Shown here: positions 22,176 to 52,557 of the stretch, one piece after another
Layout: each line of letters begins with the position of its first letter
How positions within the stretch are numbered: position 1 is the first letter of the stretch
Origin: Candidatus Bathyarchaeota archaeon BA2
Lineage (GTDB): Archaea > Thermoproteota > Bathyarchaeia > Bathyarchaeales > Bathyarchaeaceae
Length of the DNA: 52,557 bases
Assembly: GCA_001399795.1 (NCBI GenBank)
Contig: LIHK01000054.1
Coordinates: forward strand, 375 to 52,931
Direction: 5' to 3'
Translations under genes and position numbers: made by a program
The notes under the pieces: model-generated
What the model was told of the DNA's origin: nothing
The model's input: the letters and a program-made list of their open reading frames with translations, nothing else
Databases searched by the model: none

Positions 22176-23465
22176 ATGAGTAGAGAAATAGTAGTAGAAC
22201 ATCTGGCCAGAGTTGAAGGCCACGGAAGAATAGAGGTCACGGTTGAAGGTGAAAAAGTAAAAGATGTCAAGATGGGAATTCTTGAAGGCCCAAGATTCTT
22301 TGAGGCATTCATTGAAGGCGTAAAGTACGACAAGGTTCCAGATGTAATGAGAAGAATCTGCGCAATATGCACCGCCGCCCATAGCCTTGCTTCCATTCGC
22401 GCTATTGAGAAGGCTTTCAAAGTCGAAGTTACCCCCCAGACAAAGTTGCTGAGGGACCTCCTCATACATGGAGAGATGATTGAAAGCCACGCATTACATG
22501 TGTTCATGCTCGCGCTTCCAGATTACTTAGGATATCCAGATGCAATAAGCATGGTTGACAAGTATGCCAAGGAAGTGAAGGCGGCGCTCCAACTAAAAAA
22601 AGCGGGAAACATGGTCCACATCCTTTTAAGTGGAAGAGAAGTCCACGGCATGAATGAACGCGTAGGAGGAATTTCAACCATACCCGAAGAGCAAGACCTG
22701 CTCGCAATCAGGAAAGCCATGGAAGGCTCCAAAGCAACAGCTGAACTTGCGGTAAAACTGTTCACAACCATAGATGTCCCTGATTTTGCACAATCCGAAA
22801 ATGCTCTCATGGCGTTGGATCCGGGAAAGAAATTTGGATATATCGGCGATTACGTGCTGATTTCCAATGGAGAAAGGAGAAGAGTTGAAGAGTACAGAGA
22901 ACTGACAAATGAAAAAGTGGTGAAGCACGCCCACGCAAAGCACTCTTCCTACAAGGATTCTCCCTTCATGGTTGGAGCCCTTCCCAGAATTTGTCTTTGC
23001 AAAGACAAACTCTACGGAACAGCTAAGGAGCTGTTTAAAGAGTATGAAGACAAACTGGATCACAGAAATTCTCTAAACAATAACCTAGCCCAAGCAATAG
23101 AGCTCGTCCACAGCGTAGACAGATGCATCGAAGACATAGACGAGCTTTTGAGCAACGGCCTCGAAAAAGAGGGGCTGGTGGAAATTGAGCCAAGAGAAAG
23201 CTCCGCAGTCGGCGCCGTAGAGGCTCCGAGGGGAATTCTCTACCACAACTATTCCTTCGATGAGAACGGTTGCATAACTAAAGCCAACGTGATAACGCCC
23301 ACAGCTATGAACTGCGCCAACATAGAGAAGGACTGTAGAGTTGCTGTTGAAAGGCTGGTCGCTGAGGGAAAGAAGAATTTAGAAGAGCCCTTGGAGCTAA
23401 TTGCAAGGGCCTACGATCCTTGCATATCCTGCTCGGTGCACCTAGTTAAAGTAAAGTTTCTTTAG
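22176..23465 (+). CDS. hydA: Group 3b [NiFe]-hydrogenase large subunit
   Basis: ARVEGHG, L1 RICAICTAAH, L2 YDPCISCSVH with a 7-aa cleavable tail. Confidence 0.95.
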   Translation: MSREIVVEHLARVEGHGRIEVTVEGEKVKDVKMGILEGPRFFEAFIEGVKYDKVPDVMRRICAICTAAHSLASIRAIEKAFKVEVTPQTKLLRDLLIHGEMIESHALHVFMLALPDYLGYPDAISMVDKYAKEVKAALQLKKAGNMVHILLSGREVHGMNERVGGISTIPEEQDLLAIRKAMEGSKATAELAVKLFTTIDVPDFAQSENALMALDPGKKFGYIGDYVLISNGERRRVEEYRELTNEKVVKHAHAKHSSYKDSPFMVGALPRICLCKDKLYGTAKELFKEYEDKLDHRNSLNNNLAQAIELVHSVDRCIEDIDELLSNGLEKEGLVEIEPRESSAVGAVEAPRGILYHNYSFDENGCITKANVITPTAMNCANIEKDCRVAVERLVAEGKKNLEEPLELIARAYDPCISCSVHLVKVKFL

Positions 23466-23673
23466 AAGGGCTTCAGACAGACCGTAAACACGAGGTTAGC
23501 GGTAGTCTACATTGCCTTCATAATTTATGATTAGCGAAGCACATCCATGGTTATGCAGAAAGGAAACAATCTGTTATGTGTTAGCCAAAACGTATGTTAG
23601 GTAGCCTTCTTTCTCTCCAACGACTTTAACCTTACGAAACAACCTGAGGCTTTCAAGGCATATCGCGCGTGTG

Positions 23674-25128
23674 TCACCTTTTCAAGGTTTTCAGCAACTT
23701 TTTGTTGTGGCTGTATATTTTCACTTCGAGGGGCATTTGACCTATTGCGAAGTGGGTTGCGCAGGCCCAGCATGGGTCATAGGCTCTGAAGGCCATCTCC
23801 ACCATGTTCAATATTCCCTGGCTCACTTCTCCGCCGTGTATAAGGCCTTTGGCTGCGTCTCTTATGGACATGCATATGGCGGAAGAGTTGTTTGTTGTAG
23901 CCACTATTAGATTGACCTTTTTTATTAGGGCGTCTTCGTCAAGTTGATAGTGATGTATCAGGGTGCCCCTGGCCGCTTCGATTATTCCGACTCCTTCTCT
24001 GGGGTTGCCTACCTCATTCCGAAGGTCTTTACTTGTTATCTCCTCGTCTCTGCTTAGTTCTAAGCATCTTTCTGCCGCGTATAGTAGTTCTATGAGTCTG
24101 GCCCAATGAAATGCAAGAGTTGAGTGTACCGGCTTTCCGCCCAGTGTTTCATACATTCTCTCATATTCTTGCTGTGCTAGAGGAGTTGCCATACCCTCTG
24201 AAGCGTTTAACCTACCGAGCGGTCCAACCCTGTAAACGCCACTTGCTGGACCGTCAACTAAGCCTTTCCATCCAACCTTTTTGAGGTACGTCAATTTCGT
24301 GTATGTCCAGTCTTCCACGCGTTCCTCGATGACATCCAAGTATTCGGAGGGGCCAAATTTCACAAACTCTTTGCCTTGAGGGTCAACCACCCTTACTTTA
24401 CCATCATAGAAGTTGACTTTGTTGTTTTGGTCAACCGTGCCCATGTAATACGTTTTGAGAGTGTACGGGGCACTCAGGATTATGTCTACGTACTTCTTGT
24501 TCTTCAACACAACATCATCAAATATTTTTAAGCTGAACTTTGCGAATTCAACGCTAGACTCCGCCATCTCTTCAATTTCCTGCCTCTCCTCCTCTGTGAG
24601 TCCTTTGGATATGCCCCCAGGTAGTCCACAGTTGGGGTGAGTTGCTTTTCCGCCAAACATGGCGGTGATTTTTTGTCCGTAGGCTCTGTGCTTTATTACC
24701 TCTTTCGCTATGTCTAAACCAACTTTTCGGATTACTCCAAGAATGTTTCTTTCCGCTGGTGGGGCATCTGGTCCAACAACAAAGTCTGGTGCCCCTAGAA
24801 AGTAGAAGTGAAGAGTGTGATCATAGACATAATAGCCACTATACATGAGTTCCCTAAGCTTTTTAGCTGCCGGAGGAGGTTCAACGTTAAATGCGGCGTC
24901 TAACGCTTTTGTTGAGGCAAAATGGTGCGCAACTGGGCAAACACCGCAGATTCTGGGCGTAATTATCGGTAAATCCTCGGCCCTTCTACCCTCGCAGAAC
25001 CTCTCAAACCCTCTCAGCTCTGGAACTTGGAAGTAAGCGTTCTCTACGTTTCCATCCTCATTTAGGAATATGGATATTTTTCCATGGCCCTCTAGTCTAG
25101 TGATGGGGTCTATGGTTATTGTTTTCAT
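23674..25128 (-). CDS. mvhA: Group 3c (Mvh) [NiFe]-hydrogenase large subunit
   Basis: TRLEGHG, L1 RICGVCPVAH, L2 YDPCWACATH plus a C-terminal extension. Confidence 0.95.
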   Translation of the reverse strand: MKTITIDPITRLEGHGKISIFLNEDGNVENAYFQVPELRGFERFCEGRRAEDLPIITPRICGVCPVAHHFASTKALDAAFNVEPPPAAKKLRELMYSGYYVYDHTLHFYFLGAPDFVVGPDAPPAERNILGVIRKVGLDIAKEVIKHRAYGQKITAMFGGKATHPNCGLPGGISKGLTEEERQEIEEMAESSVEFAKFSLKIFDDVVLKNKKYVDIILSAPYTLKTYYMGTVDQNNKVNFYDGKVRVVDPQGKEFVKFGPSEYLDVIEERVEDWTYTKLTYLKKVGWKGLVDGPASGVYRVGPLGRLNASEGMATPLAQQEYERMYETLGGKPVHSTLAFHWARLIELLYAAERCLELSRDEEITSKDLRNEVGNPREGVGIIEAARGTLIHHYQLDEDALIKKVNLIVATTNNSSAICMSIRDAAKGLIHGGEVSQGILNMVEMAFRAYDPCWACATHFAIGQMPLEVKIYSHNKKLLKTLKR

Positions 25129-43204: not shown

Positions 43205-43400
43205 TTCGCATTAGCTCTTATGAATGTTATTTGCTGAAACCAAGGTAAGAAAGTAGCTGTTTTGGGTTAAGAAAAATAGTGTTAGCCATTTCGTTAATAT
43301 GTTTAGGTGCTTTTAATATTACGAAGCGTTGTTGCGATGTACCGCAGCTAAGCTGGCAACATATAATTTAACTAGTCGCTTTCACAAAAGTGTTGTAGAG

Positions 43401-44240
43401 ATGTTTGTGATGCAACCTATCGAGGATCTAGCAGCTAAGTTAAAAAAAGTAGTCAGGGCCGACAAAGAGGTTTTACTTGCCTATCTATTCGGCTCACGTG
43501 GTGAAGGGAGAGTAGCCAAGCACAGCGATGTTGATATCGCGATTTTACATTGCGGCGACGAGTTGATGAAGGCTGGCGAAGTCAAAGAGAAGGCTGCTAG
43601 GGAGCTAAAGCTTGATGAGGATAGGATTGATGTTGTCGATATCTCTAAGGCTCCACTCACGCTCAAGCTTAGCATAGTTAAAGGGTTAAAGCTTATTGAC
43701 AGAGGTAATTATGAGAAAGCGCTCATTGATGAGTTAAACAAAAAGTTTCCCGAAACACGTATAATAATAAATTCGTCGGTGCGGGAAGCTATAGAATGCA
43801 ACGCTTTTAGCTTAAGGCGCGACGTTCTATATTCAAGGCTTCAAAAAGTTAGAGAGGAGGCAACATACCTAAAAGAAGAGATATTAGTGAGAGGGGTTGA
43901 AGCTGTCGTCCTAGACGGAACCACACGTAGGGCTATGGCTAGGTCTATCCATGAGCTAATTGAGGCCATGCTTGATATATGTCGTCATCTGGTCTCCGTA
44001 AAGGCCCTTGGCCCGACTGAAACATACACCGACTTCCCACGCCTGTTAAGTGAGCACAACCTAATACCTCCTTCCCTAGCTGAAGCACTTGAAGAAGTCG
44101 CAAGGCTAAGGAATGTACTTGTTCATAGATACATTGAGGTTGACTACGGTAGATTACTCAGTAAGGCTCGCGAAATTATAGATCGTGTTGTACCAAAATT
44201 TGAAGAATGGGTTCTGGGACTTCTAAGGGAGAGCAAGTAG
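43401..44240 (+). CDS. Fused MNT (minimal nucleotidyltransferase) - HEPN (DUF86) protein
   Basis: FGSRGEGRVAKHSDVD (GSX10DXD) and RNVLVHRY (RX4HXY) in one ORF; start at ATG 43401 or 43410. Confidence 0.85.
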   Translation: MFVMQPIEDLAAKLKKVVRADKEVLLAYLFGSRGEGRVAKHSDVDIAILHCGDELMKAGEVKEKAARELKLDEDRIDVVDISKAPLTLKLSIVKGLKLIDRGNYEKALIDELNKKFPETRIIINSSVREAIECNAFSLRRDVLYSRLQKVREEATYLKEEILVRGVEAVVLDGTTRRAMARSIHELIEAMLDICRHLVSVKALGPTETYTDFPRLLSEHNLIPPSLAEALEEVARLRNVLVHRYIEVDYGRLLSKAREIIDRVVPKFEEWVLGLLRESK

Positions 44241-44281: not shown

Positions 44282-46657
44282 TTACGACCTTGCAAGTTTT
44301 TCTTTGACGTCCTCCCGAGTTTTCCCTGGAAGCGGCCCCATCTTTGAAATTCTGGAGTTAAATGTTTCGAATGTTTCGGTTACCTTTCCGTATTCCGGAA
44401 GCGTTGTAGAAAACGACATTAGGCGGAGGGGTTCGATGCCATAAGCCCTTAACTCCTTTTTCATTTGGATGACGTGTTCCCTTAGGGCTTCCTCAGTGAA
44501 CACGCCGCCGTGGTCCTCAAGCAATATGACGCCGTCAGCTCCGGAAGCGAATGCTTGTAGCACGTGTTTCAAGCCAACGCGTCCTGTGCTGGGAACGCCA
44601 ATTATCCTAACGTTTGGAGGGAAAGAAACTCTGCTTTGCCCAGCCAAGTCTGCAGAGCCGTAAGCTATTTCCTTTTCAAGGAAGGCAATGATCTTCGGGG
44701 GTTTGCCGCCTTCACTTACCCCGCGGATTTGAGCCATCAACTGGGCTTCGGTGGAGTTTTTAAGGTCAATGGCTTCCCTTGGGCATCTTGGCACGCAAAT
44801 TCCACACCCGACACAAGAGATCGGGTTGATTGTTATGGCCTCCGGAGACTTTTCCACCGCTGCCACGGGACACACCTTGATGCATATTTCACACATGTCG
44901 CATTTCTCTTGAATGATGTAGACCACTTCTGGCGAAACAGAAATCTCGCCTTTCCCTACAAAGGTTGCTACCCTTGAGGCAGTAGCCATTGCTTCTAGAG
45001 TTGTTTCCCTGACATCCTTCGGACTTAGGGCGCATCCGGCAACAAACAATCCCTCGCGTTGGCTGTCAACCGGTCTAAGCTTGTAGTGCCTCTCCAAGAG
45101 GAAGCCATCAGAGCCAACCTGAATGCCTAATTTTTTTGCTAATTCCTCGGTGCCAAAATTAGGAACGATCCCCAGAGCGAGCACCACTAGGTCAAACTTT
45201 CCTTCAACTTGTGCTCCAATAAGGGTGTCCTCTGCCTTCACAAGTATTCCATCGTTATTTGATGGAACAATTTCCGCTACTCGTCCCCTGACAAATCGCA
45301 CCTTATGATCTTGAGCCGTGGCGTAAAATTCTTCATATCCCTTTCCATCAGCTCTTATATCCGTGTAAAAAATCCAAGGTTCAGCATCAGGCACAACCTT
45401 CTGAAGTAACATAGCCTGCTTAATAGACGCCATGCAACCTATCTTGCAACAGTGTTCAACCCCCTCTTCCTTGTTCATCGTTCGACTGCCCACGCAAAGT
45501 ATGAAGGCCACTTTTTTCGCCACCTTCCCATTGGACGGCCTGCGTAATCCTTGCCCGATGAGTCGCTCGAACTGCAGGTTAGTTACGATATCTGGATGTA
45601 AACCGAAGGCATACTCCTCTGGGATTTTCGGGTCTAATTGCTGGAATCCGGTGCAAGCAACGATTACACCCACATCTAGCTCAATGGTTTCTTCTTTCTG
45701 TTCGAAATCGACGGCTTTGCCCTTGCAGATTTTTTCGCAAAGCCTACAAACCCCTTTATTAAAGAATAAGCAGTGATCTTTGTCTATAACGTATGTCTTG
45801 GGAACCGCCTGCTTAAAAGGAGTGTAAATAGCCTTTCGCGGAAGCGTGGCGGCTTCAAATTCGCTTGGGACTTTGACAGGGCAGACTTTTTCGCATTCCC
45901 CGCAAGCTGTACATTTGGCTGCGTCCACGAATCTAGGTCTCTTCTTGATTAAGACTCTGTAGTTGCCGGGTGACCCTTCGGCGGCCTCTGGTTCTGCCAT
46001 GCTGATGATCTTTATATGTGGATGTTGCGAGGTAGACACCATTTTTGGTGTCAGAATGCACTGGGAGCAGTCTAGGGTGGGAAAAGTTTTGCTAAGCTGA
46101 GCCATGTGCCCGCCTATGCTCGGGCTTCTCTCAACTAGGTATACTTGATAGCCTTTATCAGCCAATTCTAGAGAGGTGATAATACCCGCGATTCCTCCCC
46201 CGATAACCAGAACATCCTGATTCACAGGCGTGGTCTTAACCTCTAAGGGTTCAAGGTAACGAGTTCGCTCCACTGCCCCGCGGATAAGGTCGATTGCCTT
46301 AGATGTTGCGGCCTCTATGTCGTCGTGAACCCAGCTACACTGTTCCCTAACGTTAGCCATTTCAAGGAAGTAGGGGTTCAAACCAGCCGATTCTAAGGTT
46401 CGCCTAAAAGTGTCAAGGTGCATCCGCGGTGAACACGAAGCCACTACAATTCTGTTAAGCCCGTGCTCTTTTATGCCCTCCTGTATCATCTCTTGCCCAG
46501 GGTCGCTACACACATATTCATAAGTTTTTGCAACCTTCACTCCTTCCATTTTGGAAGCAGCTTCTCTAACCTTTTCCACATCTACTGTATCGCTTATGTT
46601 TCCTCCACAATGACAAATGTAAACTCCGATCTTAGGTTCTTCTTTCGCCAATTTCAA
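44282..46657 (-). CDS. hdrA: HdrA-MvhD fusion protein with a degenerate MvhD domain
   Basis: Canonical HdrA order (CHCGGNI, GGGIAG, KTFPTLDC, ferredoxin insert, C-terminal ferredoxin) followed by an MvhD-like domain (AYGSADLAG, STGRVG, GADGV). Confidence 0.9.
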   Translation of the reverse strand: MKLAKEEPKIGVYICHCGGNISDTVDVEKVREAASKMEGVKVAKTYEYVCSDPGQEMIQEGIKEHGLNRIVVASCSPRMHLDTFRRTLESAGLNPYFLEMANVREQCSWVHDDIEAATSKAIDLIRGAVERTRYLEPLEVKTTPVNQDVLVIGGGIAGIITSLELADKGYQVYLVERSPSIGGHMAQLSKTFPTLDCSQCILTPKMVSTSQHPHIKIISMAEPEAAEGSPGNYRVLIKKRPRFVDAAKCTACGECEKVCPVKVPSEFEAATLPRKAIYTPFKQAVPKTYVIDKDHCLFFNKGVCRLCEKICKGKAVDFEQKEETIELDVGVIVACTGFQQLDPKIPEEYAFGLHPDIVTNLQFERLIGQGLRRPSNGKVAKKVAFILCVGSRTMNKEEGVEHCCKIGCMASIKQAMLLQKVVPDAEPWIFYTDIRADGKGYEEFYATAQDHKVRFVRGRVAEIVPSNNDGILVKAEDTLIGAQVEGKFDLVVLALGIVPNFGTEELAKKLGIQVGSDGFLLERHYKLRPVDSQREGLFVAGCALSPKDVRETTLEAMATASRVATFVGKGEISVSPEVVYIIQEKCDMCEICIKVCPVAAVEKSPEAITINPISCVGCGICVPRCPREAIDLKNSTEAQLMAQIRGVSEGGKPPKIIAFLEKEIAYGSADLAGQSRVSFPPNVRIIGVPSTGRVGLKHVLQAFASGADGVILLEDHGGVFTEEALREHVIQMKKELRAYGIEPLRLMSFSTTLPEYGKVTETFETFNSRISKMGPLPGKTREDVKEKLARS

Positions 46658-46825: not shown

Positions 46826-49087
46826 TTGCATGCAGAAATCAAAGTCAGCGGCATCGTTCAAGGCGTGGGTTTCCGACCTTTTGTCTACCGAGTTGCCGTA
46901 GAAAATGGACTAGTTGGCTATGTGCGAAACCGAGGAGACGCAGTCGTGGAAATCGTCGTTGAGGGAAAGAAAAAAGACGTTAAACGGTTCCTCAAAAATT
47001 TGAAAGAGAAAAAGCCTCCTCTCGCTCGAATCTACGATATGACAACCAATTACACCGAAGATAAGAACAAATTTAAACAATTTACGATTCTGAAGAGTTC
47101 CGAGAATGTTGAACTCTCCGGGTCTGTTATCCCACAAGACGTTTCGATCTGCGACGAATGTTTAAGCGAACTTCGAGACCCGAAAAATAAACGTTACAAC
47201 TATTTTTTCATCACGTGTACAAACTGCGGTCCTAGGTACACGATTATTGAGAAACTTCCCTACGATAGGCTGAACACCACCATGCAAGACTTCTTTATGT
47301 GTGACTTCTGTTTCAAAGAATACAACGATCCGTCAAACAGAAGGTTTCACGCTCAAACAGTTGCTTGCCCTAAATGTGGCCCAAAAGTCTACCTCACCAC
47401 AAATAACGACGAATCCATAAAGCATGAAGATCCCATAAGAGAAGCAGGCAAACTCTTGGAGGAAGGCTACATTGTTGCCATCAAGGGAAATGGAGGCTTC
47501 CACATCGCAACATCCACCACCAAGTCTGAACCCATTGCCAGATTGAGAAAGGTCAAGTATAGAGCCCAGAAACCTTTTGCAATAATGGCACGCGACATAG
47601 ATACCACAAAATCCTTCGCGGAGGTGAATATGAAAGAGGCCGAGCTGTTAACTTGCTATATTAAGCCCATAGTTTTGTTAAAGAAAAGGGATGACTACTA
47701 CCTTTCAGAACTCATCTCTCCCGGTTTACACAACATTGGTGTGATGCTTCCGTACACGGGCTTGCATGCAATGCTTTTTGACAAGGTACGGGAACCCGCC
47801 TTTGTTATGACTAGCGCAAACCCTCCCAACGAACCAATAGTCACGGAAAATGTTGAAGCCATGAAAAAGCTTGGTTCCGTGGTGGACTTCTTTCTTTTCC
47901 ACAACAGAACAATCGCCCATAGATGCGACGACTCTGTTGTTCGTCTCCACGGTGAAGATCAGAGTATAATTCGTAGATCAAGGGGGTACGCTCCTGAGCC
48001 TGTTCATCTGAAACGTTTGGCGGACAGTTATGTCTTAGGAGTTGGTGCAGAGTTCAACGTAACTTCATGTGTGCTTCTGCGGAACAAGGCTTTCATTTCA
48101 CAGCATGCCGGAGATGTTGATAACTTAGAGACGCTTGGCTTCTTGAAAAGTGCCATAAATCATTTGATAAAATTGACGAACAGCAAGGTTGAAGTTATAG
48201 CCTGTGACCTGCATCCAAAATTCACCACGACAAGGCTGGCTCAAAACCTAGGAGAAAAACTTGAATGTTCAGTGGTTCCAGTTCAACATCACCACGCTCA
48301 CATCGCCTCTCTCATGGGTGAACACGATGTTGACGAAATGATAGGCATAGCCTGCGATGGCTTCGGTTACGGTTCAGACGGCAACGCTTGGGGCGGAGAG
48401 ATACTCTACTGCAACCATGACGGTTTTCAGCGTTTGGGGCACCTTCAAGAGCAACCTATGGTGGGAGGCGACCTAGCCACGCTTTACCCATTAAGAGTGG
48501 CTGCCGGAATACTTTATGGCGAGGCTGATATTGAAGAATGGCTGCTGTTAAACAGCGACCGCTTCCCACACGGCAGAAGGGAAGTTGAAGTAATCGTTAA
48601 ACAGTTGGGAAAAGGATCAACACCCAAAACCACGAGTTGCGGGAGAGTACTAGACGCCGTGTCAGCAATACTAGGCATATGTTACGAGCGAACCTACGAG
48701 GGCGAGCCAGCGATGAAGTTAGAGTCTGCTGCCCTGAAGGGAAAAGACGTTTTAAAATTGACGCCAGAATTCAGGGGAAACGCCATCGACACCACACTTC
48801 TTGTTCATGAAATCTTCAATCAGAGAGGGAAACATTCGGTCGCTGACTTGGCTTGCTCAGCCCAGTCCTACCTTGCAAGGAGTTTAGCTGAGTTGGCTGT
48901 AGAGGAGGCGGAGCAACTTAACGTTGACTTTATCGGTTTTTCTGGGGGAGTTGCCTATAACGAGTACATCACAGTAACGATTAGAAAAATTGTTGAGGAA
49001 AACGGTTTCAAGTTCCTTGTTCATAATCAAGTTCCGCCTGGAGACGGAGGAATTTCATTTGGACAAGTCGTCGCTGCAGCCTTCTAA
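46826..49087 (+). CDS. hypF: Carbamoyltransferase HypF
   Basis: VQGVGFRPFVY acylphosphatase domain, two zinc fingers, QHHHAH and PPGDGGISFGQ. Confidence 0.96.
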   Translation: MHAEIKVSGIVQGVGFRPFVYRVAVENGLVGYVRNRGDAVVEIVVEGKKKDVKRFLKNLKEKKPPLARIYDMTTNYTEDKNKFKQFTILKSSENVELSGSVIPQDVSICDECLSELRDPKNKRYNYFFITCTNCGPRYTIIEKLPYDRLNTTMQDFFMCDFCFKEYNDPSNRRFHAQTVACPKCGPKVYLTTNNDESIKHEDPIREAGKLLEEGYIVAIKGNGGFHIATSTTKSEPIARLRKVKYRAQKPFAIMARDIDTTKSFAEVNMKEAELLTCYIKPIVLLKKRDDYYLSELISPGLHNIGVMLPYTGLHAMLFDKVREPAFVMTSANPPNEPIVTENVEAMKKLGSVVDFFLFHNRTIAHRCDDSVVRLHGEDQSIIRRSRGYAPEPVHLKRLADSYVLGVGAEFNVTSCVLLRNKAFISQHAGDVDNLETLGFLKSAINHLIKLTNSKVEVIACDLHPKFTTTRLAQNLGEKLECSVVPVQHHHAHIASLMGEHDVDEMIGIACDGFGYGSDGNAWGGEILYCNHDGFQRLGHLQEQPMVGGDLATLYPLRVAAGILYGEADIEEWLLLNSDRFPHGRREVEVIVKQLGKGSTPKTTSCGRVLDAVSAILGICYERTYEGEPAMKLESAALKGKDVLKLTPEFRGNAIDTTLLVHEIFNQRGKHSVADLACSAQSYLARSLAELAVEEAEQLNVDFIGFSGGVAYNEYITVTIRKIVEENGFKFLVHNQVPPGDGGISFGQVVAAAF

Positions 49088-49142: not shown

Positions 49143-49361
49143 ATGTGTCTCGCAATCCCGGCTAAGGTCCTAAAAGTTCAAGGAGACGTTGCAAAAGTCG
49201 ATTTTGGGCAAGGGGTTGCCCGAGACGTAAATGTCATGCTTGTAGAAGCCCGTGTGGGCGAATATGTTTTGGTTCACGCGGGATACGCCATTCAAGTTAT
49301 CGACCGAGAGGCGGCTGAGGAAACCCTCCGATTATGGGAAGAAATCCTCAAATATGAATGA
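49143..49361 (+). CDS. hypC: Hydrogenase assembly chaperone HypC
   Basis: MCLAIPAKV and VLVHAGYAI; GGTGA RBS. Confidence 0.96.
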   Translation: MCLAIPAKVLKVQGDVAKVDFGQGVARDVNVMLVEARVGEYVLVHAGYAIQVIDREAAEETLRLWEEILKYE

Positions 49362-50062
49362 AAGTTGGGAGGCATTACGCTTTGACTCGTTTGAAGGAAG
49401 CTGTCAAGGCTGAGGAAGGAGAAATCTACGACATAGAGCTTGATGCGGATCTTCTGAAAGTCAACGAAGAACTAGCAGCAAAAAATAGGGAGCTTTTACG
49501 GAAACATAATGTAACAGCAATTGATGTCATGGGAGCCATCGGATCGGGAAAAACCACCCTCATTGAAAAACTTGTTCAAGCGTTAAAGGGAAAGTATAGG
49601 ATCGCGGCTTTCAAGGGCGATTTGACAACAACAATAGACGCGGGGCTTATTGGAAAACACGGCGTAGAGGTTGTTCCCATTAACACTGGAAAAGAATGTC
49701 ATCTGGACGCAAACTTGGTGAGAAAGGCGTTCAAAAGAATTAACTTAGCGGAAATCGATCTCCTCTTTATTGAAAACGTTGGAAACCTCATTTGCCCCGC
49801 AGACTTTCCACTAGGCTCTGAGAAACGCATCGTTGTAGTAAGCGTCACCGAAGGACCCTACATGGTTGTTAAGCACCCGTTCATCTTTATGAGAGCAGAC
49901 GTAGCGGTTATAAACAAGAAGGATTTGGCCCAAGCGATGGGAGTTGATGTTAAGAAACTGGAGACGGATGTTAAGGAGATAAATCCAAACGCAAAAGTTG
50001 TGGCGACGAACTGCAGAAGCGGAGAGGGCGTCATAGAAGTGGTCTGTGCGTTGGGACTCTAA
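49358..50062 (+). CDS. hypB: Hydrogenase nickel incorporation GTPase HypB
   Basis: GAIGSGKT, ECHLDA, ENVGNLICPA and NKKD. Confidence 0.95.
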   Translation: MKVGRHYALTRLKEAVKAEEGEIYDIELDADLLKVNEELAAKNRELLRKHNVTAIDVMGAIGSGKTTLIEKLVQALKGKYRIAAFKGDLTTTIDAGLIGKHGVEVVPINTGKECHLDANLVRKAFKRINLAEIDLLFIENVGNLICPADFPLGSEKRIVVVSVTEGPYMVVKHPFIFMRADVAVINKKDLAQAMGVDVKKLETDVKEINPNAKVVATNCRSGEGVIEVVCALGL

Positions 50063-50088: not shown

Positions 50089-50460
50089 GTGCATGAATTT
50101 TCCATGATAACGCAAATCGTGGAAAACGTTCTTAAAGAGGCTGAAAAACATAGGGCAAAGAAGGTCACGGAAGTTAATCTTGTTATAGGAAAGCTGACGT
50201 TTCTAGGTCTCGAACAGGTTCGCTTCTCCTACGACGTACTGGTGAAGGGCACCATAATGGAGGGTTCAAAGCTTTACATAGAAGAGAAGAACGGTGTTGT
50301 CAAGTGTTCCAGTTGCGGCTACGAAGGAGACTTCATGTATGAAGACGATCCGATGTTTCACGTTCCAACCCCTACGCTTCACTGTCCTAAGTGTGAAGGC
50401 GTAGTCGACATCGTTAGAGGAAGAGAGTGCACGATAAAAAGCGTAAAACTCATAGTATAG
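50089..50460 (+). CDS. hypA: Nickel metallochaperone HypA
   Basis: MHEFSM with two CxxC motifs (CSSC, CPKC) and GREC. Confidence 0.95.
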   Translation: MHEFSMITQIVENVLKEAEKHRAKKVTEVNLVIGKLTFLGLEQVRFSYDVLVKGTIMEGSKLYIEEKNGVVKCSSCGYEGDFMYEDDPMFHVPTPTLHCPKCEGVVDIVRGRECTIKSVKLIV

Positions 50461-50552
50461 AAAGCCCAAGAATGTCGGCACTTATACCCAAATGAAACTT
50501 TATAAGGGAATATTATTTAATTGTGGGCAATAAATCGATTTGGTGGGAATAT

Positions 50553-50777
50553 ATGACGGTTGTGACGTTGAGTTCGAAGGGTAGATTAACGCTTCCAGCC
50601 GAGGTAGGGACTAAAATTAAAGCAGCAAGGTTTTTGGTTGTTTTGGAAGGCAATTCCATTAGGTTGATTCCGCTTTCAGACCCATTAAAATTAAAGGGGT
50701 CGGTTAAGATCCCTTGGAGCATCGAGGAGCTTGAAGAGGCTGGCGAGGAATTTGTATCCAAAAGAGTTGAAGGGTAG
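50553..50777 (+). CDS. AbrB/MazE-family antitoxin (VapB-like)
   Basis: VTLSSKGRLTLPAEV motif; overlaps the start of the downstream PIN gene. Confidence 0.8.
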   Translation: MTVVTLSSKGRLTLPAEVGTKIKAARFLVVLEGNSIRLIPLSDPLKLKGSVKIPWSIEELEEAGEEFVSKRVEG

Positions 50778-51199
50778 ATTCCTCTTAGACTCTGATGTTT
50801 TATATCGTATATTAGAGGGAATATAAGCTTGCAGACCATGCGGAGGTTGTTGTAAAATCAATAGTTGAAGGCATGGCAGAAGTGTTTGTATCATCTATGT
50901 TATATGATGATGTGATTTCTGGACTACGCTCAAAGGGCATGGAGCTCGCAGATGTGATGCAGGTTCTCACAGCTATAGCGTCAATACCTCATACACCTCT
51001 TCCCGTAACTCCAGCAATCGCTATAAGCGCTTTAACACTTTACATGCAGCATGGCGGTCCAAGAAAAATCCATTATTTCGATACGTTTCATGTGGCAACG
51101 GCTAGACTTCATGAATTGCCGATGATAACAAGCGACATTTACATAAACGAACATCAAAGGAACCTAGGTATAACAGCGGTTGACCTGAAAAAGTTATGA
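50767..51199 (+). pseudogene. vapC: PIN-domain VapC toxin, frameshifted near the 5' end
   Basis: TTG 50767 gives MKGRFLLDSDV, then TAA at 50824; the PIN body (KLADHAEVVV...HYFDTFHVATA...ITSD) continues in another frame to 51199. Confidence 0.75.
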
Positions 51200-51240
51200 A
51201 GCCCATTTATTTCACAGCTCTAATGGTAAATGTAGTGGGG

Positions 51241-52356
51241 GTGAGGCTGGCGTCAATTTCTAGGTTTAGAGATCCAAACCTAGTTCGGAAAACAGCAGAA
51301 CACATCAAAAAACTAGCAGAAAGAAGTAAATTCACGTTCATGCATGTGTGTGGAACGTATTTAGCAACCTAGCTAGATACGCACAAGACACATGAATGGA
51401 CGATAGCCCGCTACGGTCTTCGAGCTCTTCTTTCCGACACTGTGGATGTTATTGCTGGGCCGGGCTGTCCCGTCTGCATCCTCCCCGCAGCTGAAATCGA
51501 CGAGGCGATATCGTTAGCCCTAAACGAAGTAACTGTTGTAACCTTCGGCGACGTTATTCGGGTTCCTGGCTCTGAATCGTCGCTTCAGGAGGCAAAGGCT
51601 TCTGGTGGGGACGTTAGGATTGTGTATGGCGTTGGGGATGCTGTGAGAATGGCGGAGAAAGAGCCAGACAAGGATTTTGTTTTCTTTGCTATTGGGTTTG
51701 AAACCACGGCGCCGTCTACTGCCATTGAAATCCTTAACAAGCCGCCCCAAAACCTTAGCTTTCTCGTCTCCCATAGGTTGATTCCGCCAGCCATGGAACT
51801 GCTCCTCGGTGTAGGAAACCTTCACATAGACGGCTTCATCGCACCTGGCCACGTTTCCACCATCATCGGAATGAAGCCCTATGAAATATTTCCCAATGCC
51901 TATCGAATGCCTACTGTGATAGCCGGATTCGAGCCTCTGGATGTTCTTTTCGCCATCTCCATGCTGCTCCAGCAGTTAAAGGACGGGGAAGCCAGACTTG
52001 AGAATGAGTATAAGCGTTCTGTCACGTGGGAGGGCAACGTCAAAGCGCAGCGGCTCATGGAGCAAGTGTTCAGTGTGGTGGATGGATGCTGGAGGGGACT
52101 TGGAAAACTTCCCCTATCAGCGCTGGCATTAAAGGAAGAATTCCTAGAGTACGATGCGAGGAAAAAATACGACTTACAGATTGAACGTCCCAGAGACCTG
52201 ATGCCTGGTTGCCTTTGCCACCTAGTCATGATTGGAAAGATAAAGCCTCCAGAATGCCCTCTCTACATGAAGGCTTGCACGCCTCAGACTCCTAAGGGAG
52301 CGTGCATGGTTTCAATTGAAGGCACTTGCAGAATATGGGCCAAACATAAGCTATGA
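51241..52356 (+). CDS. hypD: Hydrogenase formation protein HypD, two exons (51241-51354 joined to 51388-52356)
   Basis: Exon 1 has RFRDP...FMHVCG; exon 2 has THEWTIARYGLR, GPGCPVC, GFETT, PGHVS and GACMVSIEGTC. The joined ORF is 360 aa. Start uncertain (in-frame ATGs at 51196 and 51223, GTG at 51241). Confidence 0.92.
51355..51387 (+). other. 33-nt bulge-helix-bulge (tRNA-type) intron in hypD pre-mRNA
   Basis: CATGTG|TGTG|GA^A|CGTATTTAGC-AACCTA-GCTAGATACG|CACA|AG^A|CACATG forms a 6-bp outer helix, two 3-nt bulges, a 4-bp central helix and a 10-bp inner helix. It contains an in-frame TAG (51370-51372), and excision restores HVCGTHE. Confidence 0.9.
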
Positions 52357-52557
52357 CTTATACAGAACTTTGCCTTTTTCGACGACTTCTACAATGAACG
52401 GGTTCTTTTTTCGCTTCATGTCTTGAAACTCTTCTGGTGTGTAGCCTACGGGTTCGATGGGTATTTTAAAGGTGTTTATATCCATCAGGGTTCTTATTCT
52501 GTTTAGAAAGTCTTCTTTGAAATCGGCGACAACCAAGATGTCGATGTCTGAGCCTTC
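52351..52557 (-). CDS. MNT-type nucleotidyltransferase domain protein (5' end outside the window)
   Basis: ...EGSDIDILVVADF...IEPVGYTPEEF...NPFIVEVVEKGKVLY. Confidence 0.8.
   Translation of the reverse strand, partial: EGSDIDILVVADFKEDFLNRIRTLMDINTFKIPIEPVGYTPEEFQDMKRKKNPFIVEVVEKGKVLYKS

Follow-up and report, generated by a model that had tools for sequence, protein, structure and literature searches.

Candidatus Bathyarchaeota archaeon BA2 carries a hypD gene, encoding a protein of [NiFe]-hydrogenase maturation, that is interrupted next to the codon for its iron-binding Cys. The gene lies in a stretch of 52,557 nucleotides (nt) of contig LIHK01000054.1 (positions 375 to 52,931 of the forward strand), which is referred to as the window and in which position 1 is the first letter. 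On the + strand of the window, hypD consists of exon 1 (51196-51354), of which the last codons encode His-Val-Cys-Gly, a 33-nt insert (51355-51387), and exon 2 (51388-52356, stop codon included), of which the first codons encode Thr-His-Glu-Trp. This paper describes the insert, which very probably represents a spliced intron of the archaeal bulge-helix-bulge (BHB) type in a messenger RNA (mRNA), together with the family of hypD introns to which it would belong.

Position of the insert in the hypD reading frame

The frame that runs on the + strand from 51196 reads FTFMHVCG[TYLAT*LDTHK]THEWTIARYG around the insert and ends with a stop codon at 52354-56. The insert starts one codon past the iron-binding Cys of HypD and comprises 11 codons, including an in-frame TAG at 51370-72. 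When this TAG is read through, the encoded protein matches the Pfam HypD profile over positions 2-350 of 351 (E 7e-137), and in the alignment with the solved HypD 2z1d an 11-residue gap falls exactly at the insert. Moreover, the Cys pair of the GPGCPVC motif is located 28 and 31 residues after the Cys that precedes the insert, which equals the spacing of C41, C69, and C72 in Escherichia coli HypD. Of these residues, C41 is absolutely conserved and is the proposed iron site, according to the available part of PMC12134894.

The start of hypD is uncertain, and could be either ATG 51196, which overlaps the stop codon of an upstream open reading frame (ORF) with a PIN domain by 4 nt, or GTG 51241. 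An initial annotation, made from the sequence alone, had described the insert and its in-frame TAG, and both were recovered here base for base at the same coordinates. The spliced product of 360 residues given in that annotation is obtained with the GTG start, whereas translation from ATG 51196 yields a spliced HypD of 375 residues.

Predicted fold of the insert and its flanks

The insert and the adjoining exon ends can be folded into the hBHBh' arrangement on the + strand. The outer helix h is formed by 51343-51348 of exon 1 and 51389-51394 of exon 2 (6 Watson-Crick pairs), and the central 4-bp helix H by 51349-51352 of exon 1 and 51382-51385 of the insert. These helices leave a 5' bulge GAA (51353-51355) and a 3' bulge AGA (51386-51388), with cuts predicted after 51354 and 51387, respectively. 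The inner helix h' and its loop occupy 51356-51381, in which 51356-65 and 51372-81 form 10 pairs, one of them G-U (51361/51376), and the loop spans 51366-71. The whole folded element extends over 51336-51401, including a 6-bp extension of the outer helix (51336-41/51396-401) that is set off by one unpaired base per side. The outer, central, and inner pairings, the two bulges, the single G-U pair and the loop had all been listed in the initial annotation, and each of them is present.

The predicted folding energy of this 66-nt region amounts to -29.3 kcal/mol, as compared with -12.7 +/- 2.5 kcal/mol for shuffled sequences (z -6.7; none of 200 shuffles was as good). The spliced exons alone also fold, into a hairpin of 7+6 bp with an energy of -14.6 kcal/mol, because the His-Val codons are the reverse complement of the Thr-His codons plus one base. 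In Rfam, two chance-level matches far below the gathering score were found (mir-297, 21.9/90 bits, and bxd_5, 16.3/50 bits). A self-splicing intron of group I or group II was considered and rejected, since its ribozyme core needs hundreds of nucleotides and the insert measures 33 nt, with Rfam matches at chance level only.

Interrupted and uninterrupted hypD loci in other genomes

A hypD match was detected in 52 of 60 genomes from the family and order of the window. The motif CGTHE(W/Y) is uninterrupted in all 31 of the loci read, so that the 33-nt insert has no counterpart in them, and its excision from the window restores their HVCGTHEW motif. The TAA codons inside the hypD matches of G051 and G047 result from read-through upstream of the true start, and are not introns.

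Interrupted sites were searched with a degenerate pattern (HVCG, a gap of 13-43 nt, THEWT) and with a broader one, the patterns requiring HVCG...HE(W/Y)T and a gap of 13-43 nt. Pattern scanning of the genome collection revealed an interruption at this site in two Candidatus Nezhaarchaeota records, and scanning of the metagenome collection yielded eight loci, four of which are true hypD genes (L040, L041, L044, and L046); the others (L042, L043, L045, and L047) matched the pattern by chance, outside hypD. In a sample of 401 genomes of the phylum, the broader pattern matched in 14 genomes, at the hypD site in every case, and a reversed control pattern gave no matches in the same sample. The 14 genomes are that of the window (G000), nine of the ten sampled members of family f48, which is the family of the two Nezhaarchaeota records, two of three members of f54, one of five members of f40, and the single genome of f58. 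The tenth f48 genome (G413, 69% complete) had no hypD match among the matches listed. In addition, a protein-match survey of the sample was performed, of which the best 150 matches were listed, with 131 more beyond. The 20 regions in which the alignment started at residues 35-64 were read, and 11 of these are intron-bearing; no intron is present in the remaining nine (L054, L059, L063, L064, and L067-L071), in which the alignment started late because of an 11-residue insert in the query. Altogether 17 non-redundant interrupted loci were obtained, i.e., the window and 16 from other genomes and metagenomes, and these prevalence figures are lower bounds because longer introns or diverged motifs are missed by the patterns. 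Same-site insertions, for which the initial annotation had proposed to look in relatives, are present in 16 further loci, and the BHB pairing is kept through compensatory changes.

Since the genome is a bin of 57 contigs with 3.5% contamination, and also contains a second, diverged 3' end of hypD, the insert might be suspected to be an artefact of assembly or binning, a concern that the initial annotation had also voiced. However, a 1296-nt contig assembled independently from a public run reproduces 51000-51734 without a single difference, insert included. Moreover, near-identical and approximately 85%-identical variants of the window intron occur in contigs from public runs of three further studies, and insert-bearing genes are found in 4 JGI contigs and 13 other genomes, which leaves an artefact with a next to negligible probability.

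Two types of predicted hypD intron

The inserts of the 17 loci are 20-33 nt long; 12 of them have a length that is not divisible by 3, and each of the remaining five contains an in-frame stop, so that HypD would be produced from these genes only after removal of the insert. In all 17 loci, one of the frame-restoring excisions is exactly the canonical BHB cut, with 4/4 central pairs and 3-nt bulges. The outer helix has 2-6 and the inner helix 3-10 contiguous pairs, the values for the window being 6 (plus the 6-bp extension) and 10. Excision according to the rule for the archaeal splicing endonuclease EndA, i.e., a cut after the second nucleotide of each bulge, restores HVCGTHE(W/Y) in 17/17 loci, and it yields full-length HypD in all 15 loci that are not cut by a contig end. 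This rule, which had been applied in the initial annotation, matches the rule published for the cbf5 intron, as given in the available text of PMC2738675.

The loci can be divided into two types. Type A was found in the clade of the window, and comprises the window, L040, L041, and L044, with introns of 33, 31, 30, and 33 nt, respectively. It is characterized by the central helix TGYG/CRCA, the bulges GRA and AGA, and a splice that joins GGN to ACN between the Gly and Thr codons. The 13 loci of Nezhaarchaeota-like archaea and three other families constitute type B, which has introns of 20-28 nt, the central helix CGGY/GCCG, a 5' bulge ACR and a 3' bulge ANN, and which is spliced two bases into the Thr codon (AC, then N), 2 nt downstream of type A. 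At several type B loci, reading of the unspliced transcript would bring in a base other than the third bulge base, and the conserved Thr codon is therefore predicted to exist only in spliced RNA (e.g., L056, L058, L060, L062, and L066).

As an alternative to splicing, the insert could be retained in the mRNA, with the ribosome reading through the stop, shifting frame, or hopping as in T4 gene 60. In bypass of the latter type, matching take-off and landing codons flank the gap. The stable hairpin after the Gly codon is loosely reminiscent of gene 60, and read-through of the TAG would, in the window alone, give an 11-residue insertion. Such an insertion would, however, adjoin the metal-binding Cys, at a place without an insertion in the solved HypD, and the candidate take-off codon GGA (51352-54) lacks a landing match, the codon preceding exon 2 being AAG and no GGA being present in 51380-51390. 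Moreover, insert lengths of 20-33 nt in all phases would call for a different recoding event in each lineage, and recoding leaves unexplained why exon pairing with exact 3-nt bulges and a 4-bp central helix is kept. Retention of the insert combined with recoding is consequently considered quite improbable.

Covariation and codon choice

Standard pairs make up 95.1% of the cells in the alignment of the 4 type A sequences, as compared with 19-52% when the partners are slid, and the outer helix is paired in 24/24 cells. Five type A pairs have changed on both sides, one of which is an exon-intron pair in the central helix: in L041, a change of the exon Cys codon from TGT to TGC is matched by a change of the intron from CACA to CGCA. 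The type B alignment (13 sequences) has 96.6% of its cells paired, versus 30-39% after sliding, and its inner helices share almost no sequence while pairing is always kept. Changes on both sides were counted in 22 type B cells, involving 6 pairs, as compared with 8.5 +/- 2.5 cells in shuffles (0/500 reached the observed value), a count that loses part of its weight, as do those for type A, because the sequences are related and each type forms one clade, so that the changes are not independent events.

Covariation extends to the coding segments. An outer pair of type B that joins two exon bases, namely the Val and His codons at their synonymous third positions, also covaries (GC in 5 sequences, AU in 3, GU in 2, and unpaired in 3). 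In type A, Val is encoded by GTG and Thr by ACA or ACG, each in 4/4 sequences, and these Val and Thr codons pair with each other, whereas only 1 of 31 intronless relatives uses ACA or ACG for this Thr. Finally, in variant contigs of public runs, 51357 G>A occurs together with 51380 C>T.

The covariation also bears on the possibility that HypD is split, with a short N-terminal peptide (about 55 residues) that assembles with a separately made C-terminal protein. A GTG-started ORF of 304 aa after the insert could encode the second part, but it starts past the Thr-His motif and would therefore lack it. The N-terminal part would end in lineage-specific junk, a conserved start codon after the insert is absent, and the covariation of the BHB element would be unexplained, which makes a split HypD highly improbable.

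Chance expectation and evidence against splicing

The coincidence between the predicted cuts and the borders of the insert was evaluated over a grid of 28 offsets and 61 lengths for each of the 17 interrupted loci (29,036 (offset, length) cells). A canonical BHB was present in 20 of the 29,036 cells, and 19 of these 20 are among the 95 cells that restore the frame and the motif. The mirror-image geometry, which the enzyme should not recognise, was matched in three cells of the same grid, none of which is frame-restoring. The coincidence of predicted cuts with the insert borders defined by homology is far beyond chance.

Several observations weigh against a spliced intron. Cleavage and ligation are deduced from comparison rather than from RNA. 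The exact BHB structure, at -27.9 kcal/mol, is not the minimum-free-energy fold of the element and lies 1.4 kcal/mol above it. The geometry as such is common by chance: when both strands of the 1.46-Mb genome were scanned for canonical geometry, with mirror-image geometry as the control, a loose scan gave 8561 canonical and 8659 mirror matches, and with an outer helix of at least 6 and an inner helix of at least 9 pairs 7 canonical and 12 mirror matches were found. A filter requiring that excision joins two open frames was equally non-discriminating (266 canonical and 264 mirror matches), and the genome-wide scan can therefore not find further mRNA introns unless homology information is added; hypD is the top match by helix length in the ORF-filtered scan, and no other candidate is claimed. 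Within the family, the pair at columns 12/52 is broken in 3 of the 13 type B sequences, L046, L056, and L058 (all type B) have only 2 contiguous outer pairs beside the bulge, and the inner helix of L040 has 3 contiguous pairs followed by an internal loop. One low-depth public-run contig (X3, depth 3.3) carries 51357 G>A with an unchanged partner base. Lastly, the diverged second hypD 3' end (G000:C15:1-63; 87% over 62 nt) indicates that the interrupted hypD is maybe not the sole copy in the bin; this 3' end stems either from another strain in the bin or from duplication of the locus, and may match the intron-bearing variant contigs of runs X1 and X2.

Selection on the interrupted genes and history of the predicted introns

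The interrupted type A genes are under strong purifying selection. The ratio of nonsynonymous to synonymous substitutions (dN/dS) between type A genes is 0.06-0.13, with dS ranging from 0.74 to >2 (5 of 6 pairs were computable and the sixth was saturated), and these low ratios at high dS imply that the genes have been functional for a long time while interrupted. This bears directly on the view that hypD is a decaying pseudogene that was killed by a random small insertion, which would account for an in-frame stop within the catalytic motif and would agree with the landing of a toxin-antitoxin-like pair in the operon. The interrupted genes are otherwise intact in the 17 loci, the selection is seen at dS values near or beyond saturation, and the insert has been kept across two deep clades. 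Furthermore, hypF, hypB, hypA, and two [NiFe]-hydrogenase large-subunit genes retain open frames. The objection that the dN/dS signal dates entirely from before the insertion is countered by the within-clade nature of the comparisons, and inactivation of hypD is regarded as very improbable.

HypD trees of 37 and 57 rows were constructed from the fetched loci only, with no rows dropped; these do not include the intronless copy of G325 and the second matches of G371 and G425. In the 57-row tree, type A forms one clade (SH-like approximate likelihood ratio test (SH-aLRT) 98), nested in the intronless hypD genes of the window's family, and type B forms another (85), which joins the Nezhaarchaeota-type family, f54, f40, and f58. 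Since the types fall into separate clades, two gains are likely, and two gains 2 nt apart are the likely simplest history suggested by these sequences; a single gain, with a 2-nt slide and numerous losses afterwards, is a less simple possibility. Searches with the intron and the whole motif by blastn-short against the genome returned the locus itself and chance matches of 10-16 nt, and no donor tRNA intron was found. In the protein-match survey two hypD matches each were seen for G325 (L058/L074), G371 (L061/L075), and G425 (L055/L076), and for G325 the listed second hypD is intronless (C11:2201-3274), the other copy having a type B intron.

The ready-made outer helix in the exons offers a plausible reason for recurrent gain. 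We tentatively propose that the exon hairpin serves as a landing pad, by which hypD would have gained a BHB intron twice and kept it for long by tuning of synonymous codons, a scenario that is quite possible, if somewhat short of probable.

Splicing enzymes and the cbf5 intron of the same genome

The survey of splicing enzymes covered the genome of the window (G000), which encodes two proteins with both transfer RNA (tRNA)-intron endonuclease domains (PF01974/PF02778), i.e., two EndA paralogs, and one PF01139 protein, RtcB. The EndA paralogs map to the regions G000:C4:35790-36035 and C5:26560-26814. The nearest matches of one paralog are chains 3p1z_B, 3ajv_B, and 2cv8_A (E 1e-40 to 1e-42), which are from crenarchaeal enzymes. 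This paralog has a C-terminal Tyr, His, and Lys at what are presumably the positions of the catalytic triad, and the other paralog does not have that His. Such EndA pairs form heterotetramers of broad specificity.

The cbf5 gene of the same genome (G000:C38:14453-14602, minus strand; L036, L037) contains a canonical BHB intron of 18 nt that includes an in-frame TGA. This intron cuts the catalytic Asp codon of GGTLDP between its first and second letters, which agrees with the published position of the cbf5 intron in Crenarchaeota (PMC2738675). That 2009 survey encountered the cbf5 intron only in Desulfurococcales and Sulfolobales. The presence of this intron indicates that the lineage very probably already splices one mRNA, that of cbf5, by the EndA route. 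The G000 lineage with its cbf5 intron belongs to a different class from the Nezhaarchaeota-type family. The same cbf5 (C38, minus strand, about 14000 down to base 1, where the contig ends) also seems to have a long intein-like in-frame stretch after GTYVRKLC, which starts with CVPGDTEI and runs off the contig. ARAGORN with intron detection predicted 37 tRNA genes in G000, 24 of which have predicted introns of 8-1755 nt, some of these surely being false calls, and this tRNA set fits the intron-rich archaeal picture.

Genomic context of hypD

Upstream of hypD, the + strand of the window encodes hypF (46826-49087), hypB (49358-50062), and hypA (50089-50460). Between hypA and hypD lie a small ORF of 84 aa (50523-50777), for which no Pfam match was found, and the PIN-domain ORF of 108 aa (50873-51199) that overlaps the hypD ATG. 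Together these two ORFs resemble a toxin-antitoxin pair of the VapBC type. The frame that immediately precedes hypD has, at the loci of several relatives, an end like that of the HypA of the window (KLIV/KLVI), as if hypD there directly follows hypA.

Elsewhere in the window, two divergent [NiFe]-hydrogenase large-subunit genes with open frames of 430 and 490 aa are located at 22296-25014 (C22:22670-25388), and an HdrA/MvhD-like fusion is located at 44282-46657. A fused ORF of a nucleotidyltransferase and a HepT-like RNase, of the MNT-HepT toxin-antitoxin type, occupies 43329-44240, and the ORF at the window end (52351-52557, minus strand), which runs off the sequence, is nucleotidyltransferase-like by eye. 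On G000:C15:1-1479, about 1.2 kb of extra sequence follows the second hypD 3' end, after which the final 228 nt of C22 recur in a 93% copy.

Discussion

The predicted hypD element passes every test for an archaeal BHB intron that can be applied at the sequence level, and the insert is very probably spliced out. Pseudogene decay, recoding, a split protein, and an artefact are unlikely explanations even when taken together. The initial annotation had proposed a functional mRNA intron in this gene, and the comparative tests suggested along with it all turned out favourable. Its proposal is to be qualified in that the intron is not unique to this genome and belongs to a wider hypD family of two types, and that we infer its functionality.

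In the proposed mechanism, the outer helix of the transcript would arise between the His-Val and Thr-His codons and the central 4-bp helix between exon TGTG and intron CACA, and the intron's own hairpin would supply the inner helix, leaving two 3-nt bulges. EndA, in this organism probably a heteromer of the two paralogs, would then cut after the second base of each bulge, and RtcB would join the exons (GGA to ACA), by which the invariant Cys-Gly-Thr-His motif and a full-length HypD would be obtained.

The cbf5 pre-mRNA intron of Crenarchaeota was reportedly described by Watanabe in 2002. According to the available part of a later study of this intron (Yokobori 2009, PMC2738675), it resembles the hypD intron in being a short BHB-type intron in a coding sequence that is cut between the second and third bulge residues, in being located at a catalytic residue, and in that only some of its copies preserve the frame; its hosts, moreover, have a heteromeric endonuclease, to which that of the hypD host can be likened. 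The hypD intron differs from it in several respects: its host gene functions in [NiFe]-hydrogenase maturation, two types occur at one site, 2 nt apart and in separate clades, and selection on synonymous codons is visible. Moreover, the hypD motifs have 4/4 central pairs and are canonical, while the published cbf5 motifs are for the most part described as unconventional (relaxed).

A second mRNA substrate of the archaeal splicing endonuclease, distinct from tRNA and ribosomal RNA as hypD would be, is the BHB intron in the 5' untranslated region (5' UTR) of HVO_1309 in Haloferax volcanii (Schwarz 2020, PMC7714728; JBC 2023 review, PMC10485636; both as far as available). According to these texts, the HVO_1309 intron lies in an untranslated leader and was shown experimentally, whereas the hypD intron interrupts a coding sequence and is predicted. 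With the archaeal tRNA introns, the hypD intron shares the hBHBh' geometry, the same predicted enzymes (EndA and RtcB), and a similar size range. Unlike these, it has an mRNA as its host and an outer helix made of two coding segments, so that pairing would be kept via synonymous codon choice.

The archaeal mRNA targets named in the available parts of PMC7714728 and PMC10485636 are cbf5 (coding sequence) and HVO_1309 (5' UTR), and PMC10485636, published in 2023, expects that further archaeal mRNA targets will be found. Literature searches, with supplementary files outside their scope, found no report of an intron in hypD. With hypD, the archaeal protein-coding sequences known to be interrupted by an endonuclease-type intron would number only two, cbf5 having been the sole one for over twenty years as far as the same parts of PMC7714728 and PMC10485636 indicate. 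A second host gene with 17 natural variants would mean that protein-mediated splicing of archaeal mRNA is not a one-gene oddity, and the hypD loci would provide a natural series on the gain and retention of such introns, including selection on synonymous codons that holds an RNA helix. If the landing-pad scenario is true, BHB introns could colonise any coding hairpin, and many 'frameshifted' or 'truncated' genes in metagenome assemblies of Thermoproteota may be hidden spliced genes. Splicing beside the catalytic Cys could also gate hydrogenase maturation. Finally, gene callers will call hypD truncated, frameshifted, or a pseudogene in these lineages, and such miscalls would distort reconstructions of the hydrogen metabolism of Nezhaarchaeota-like archaea and related uncultured lineages.

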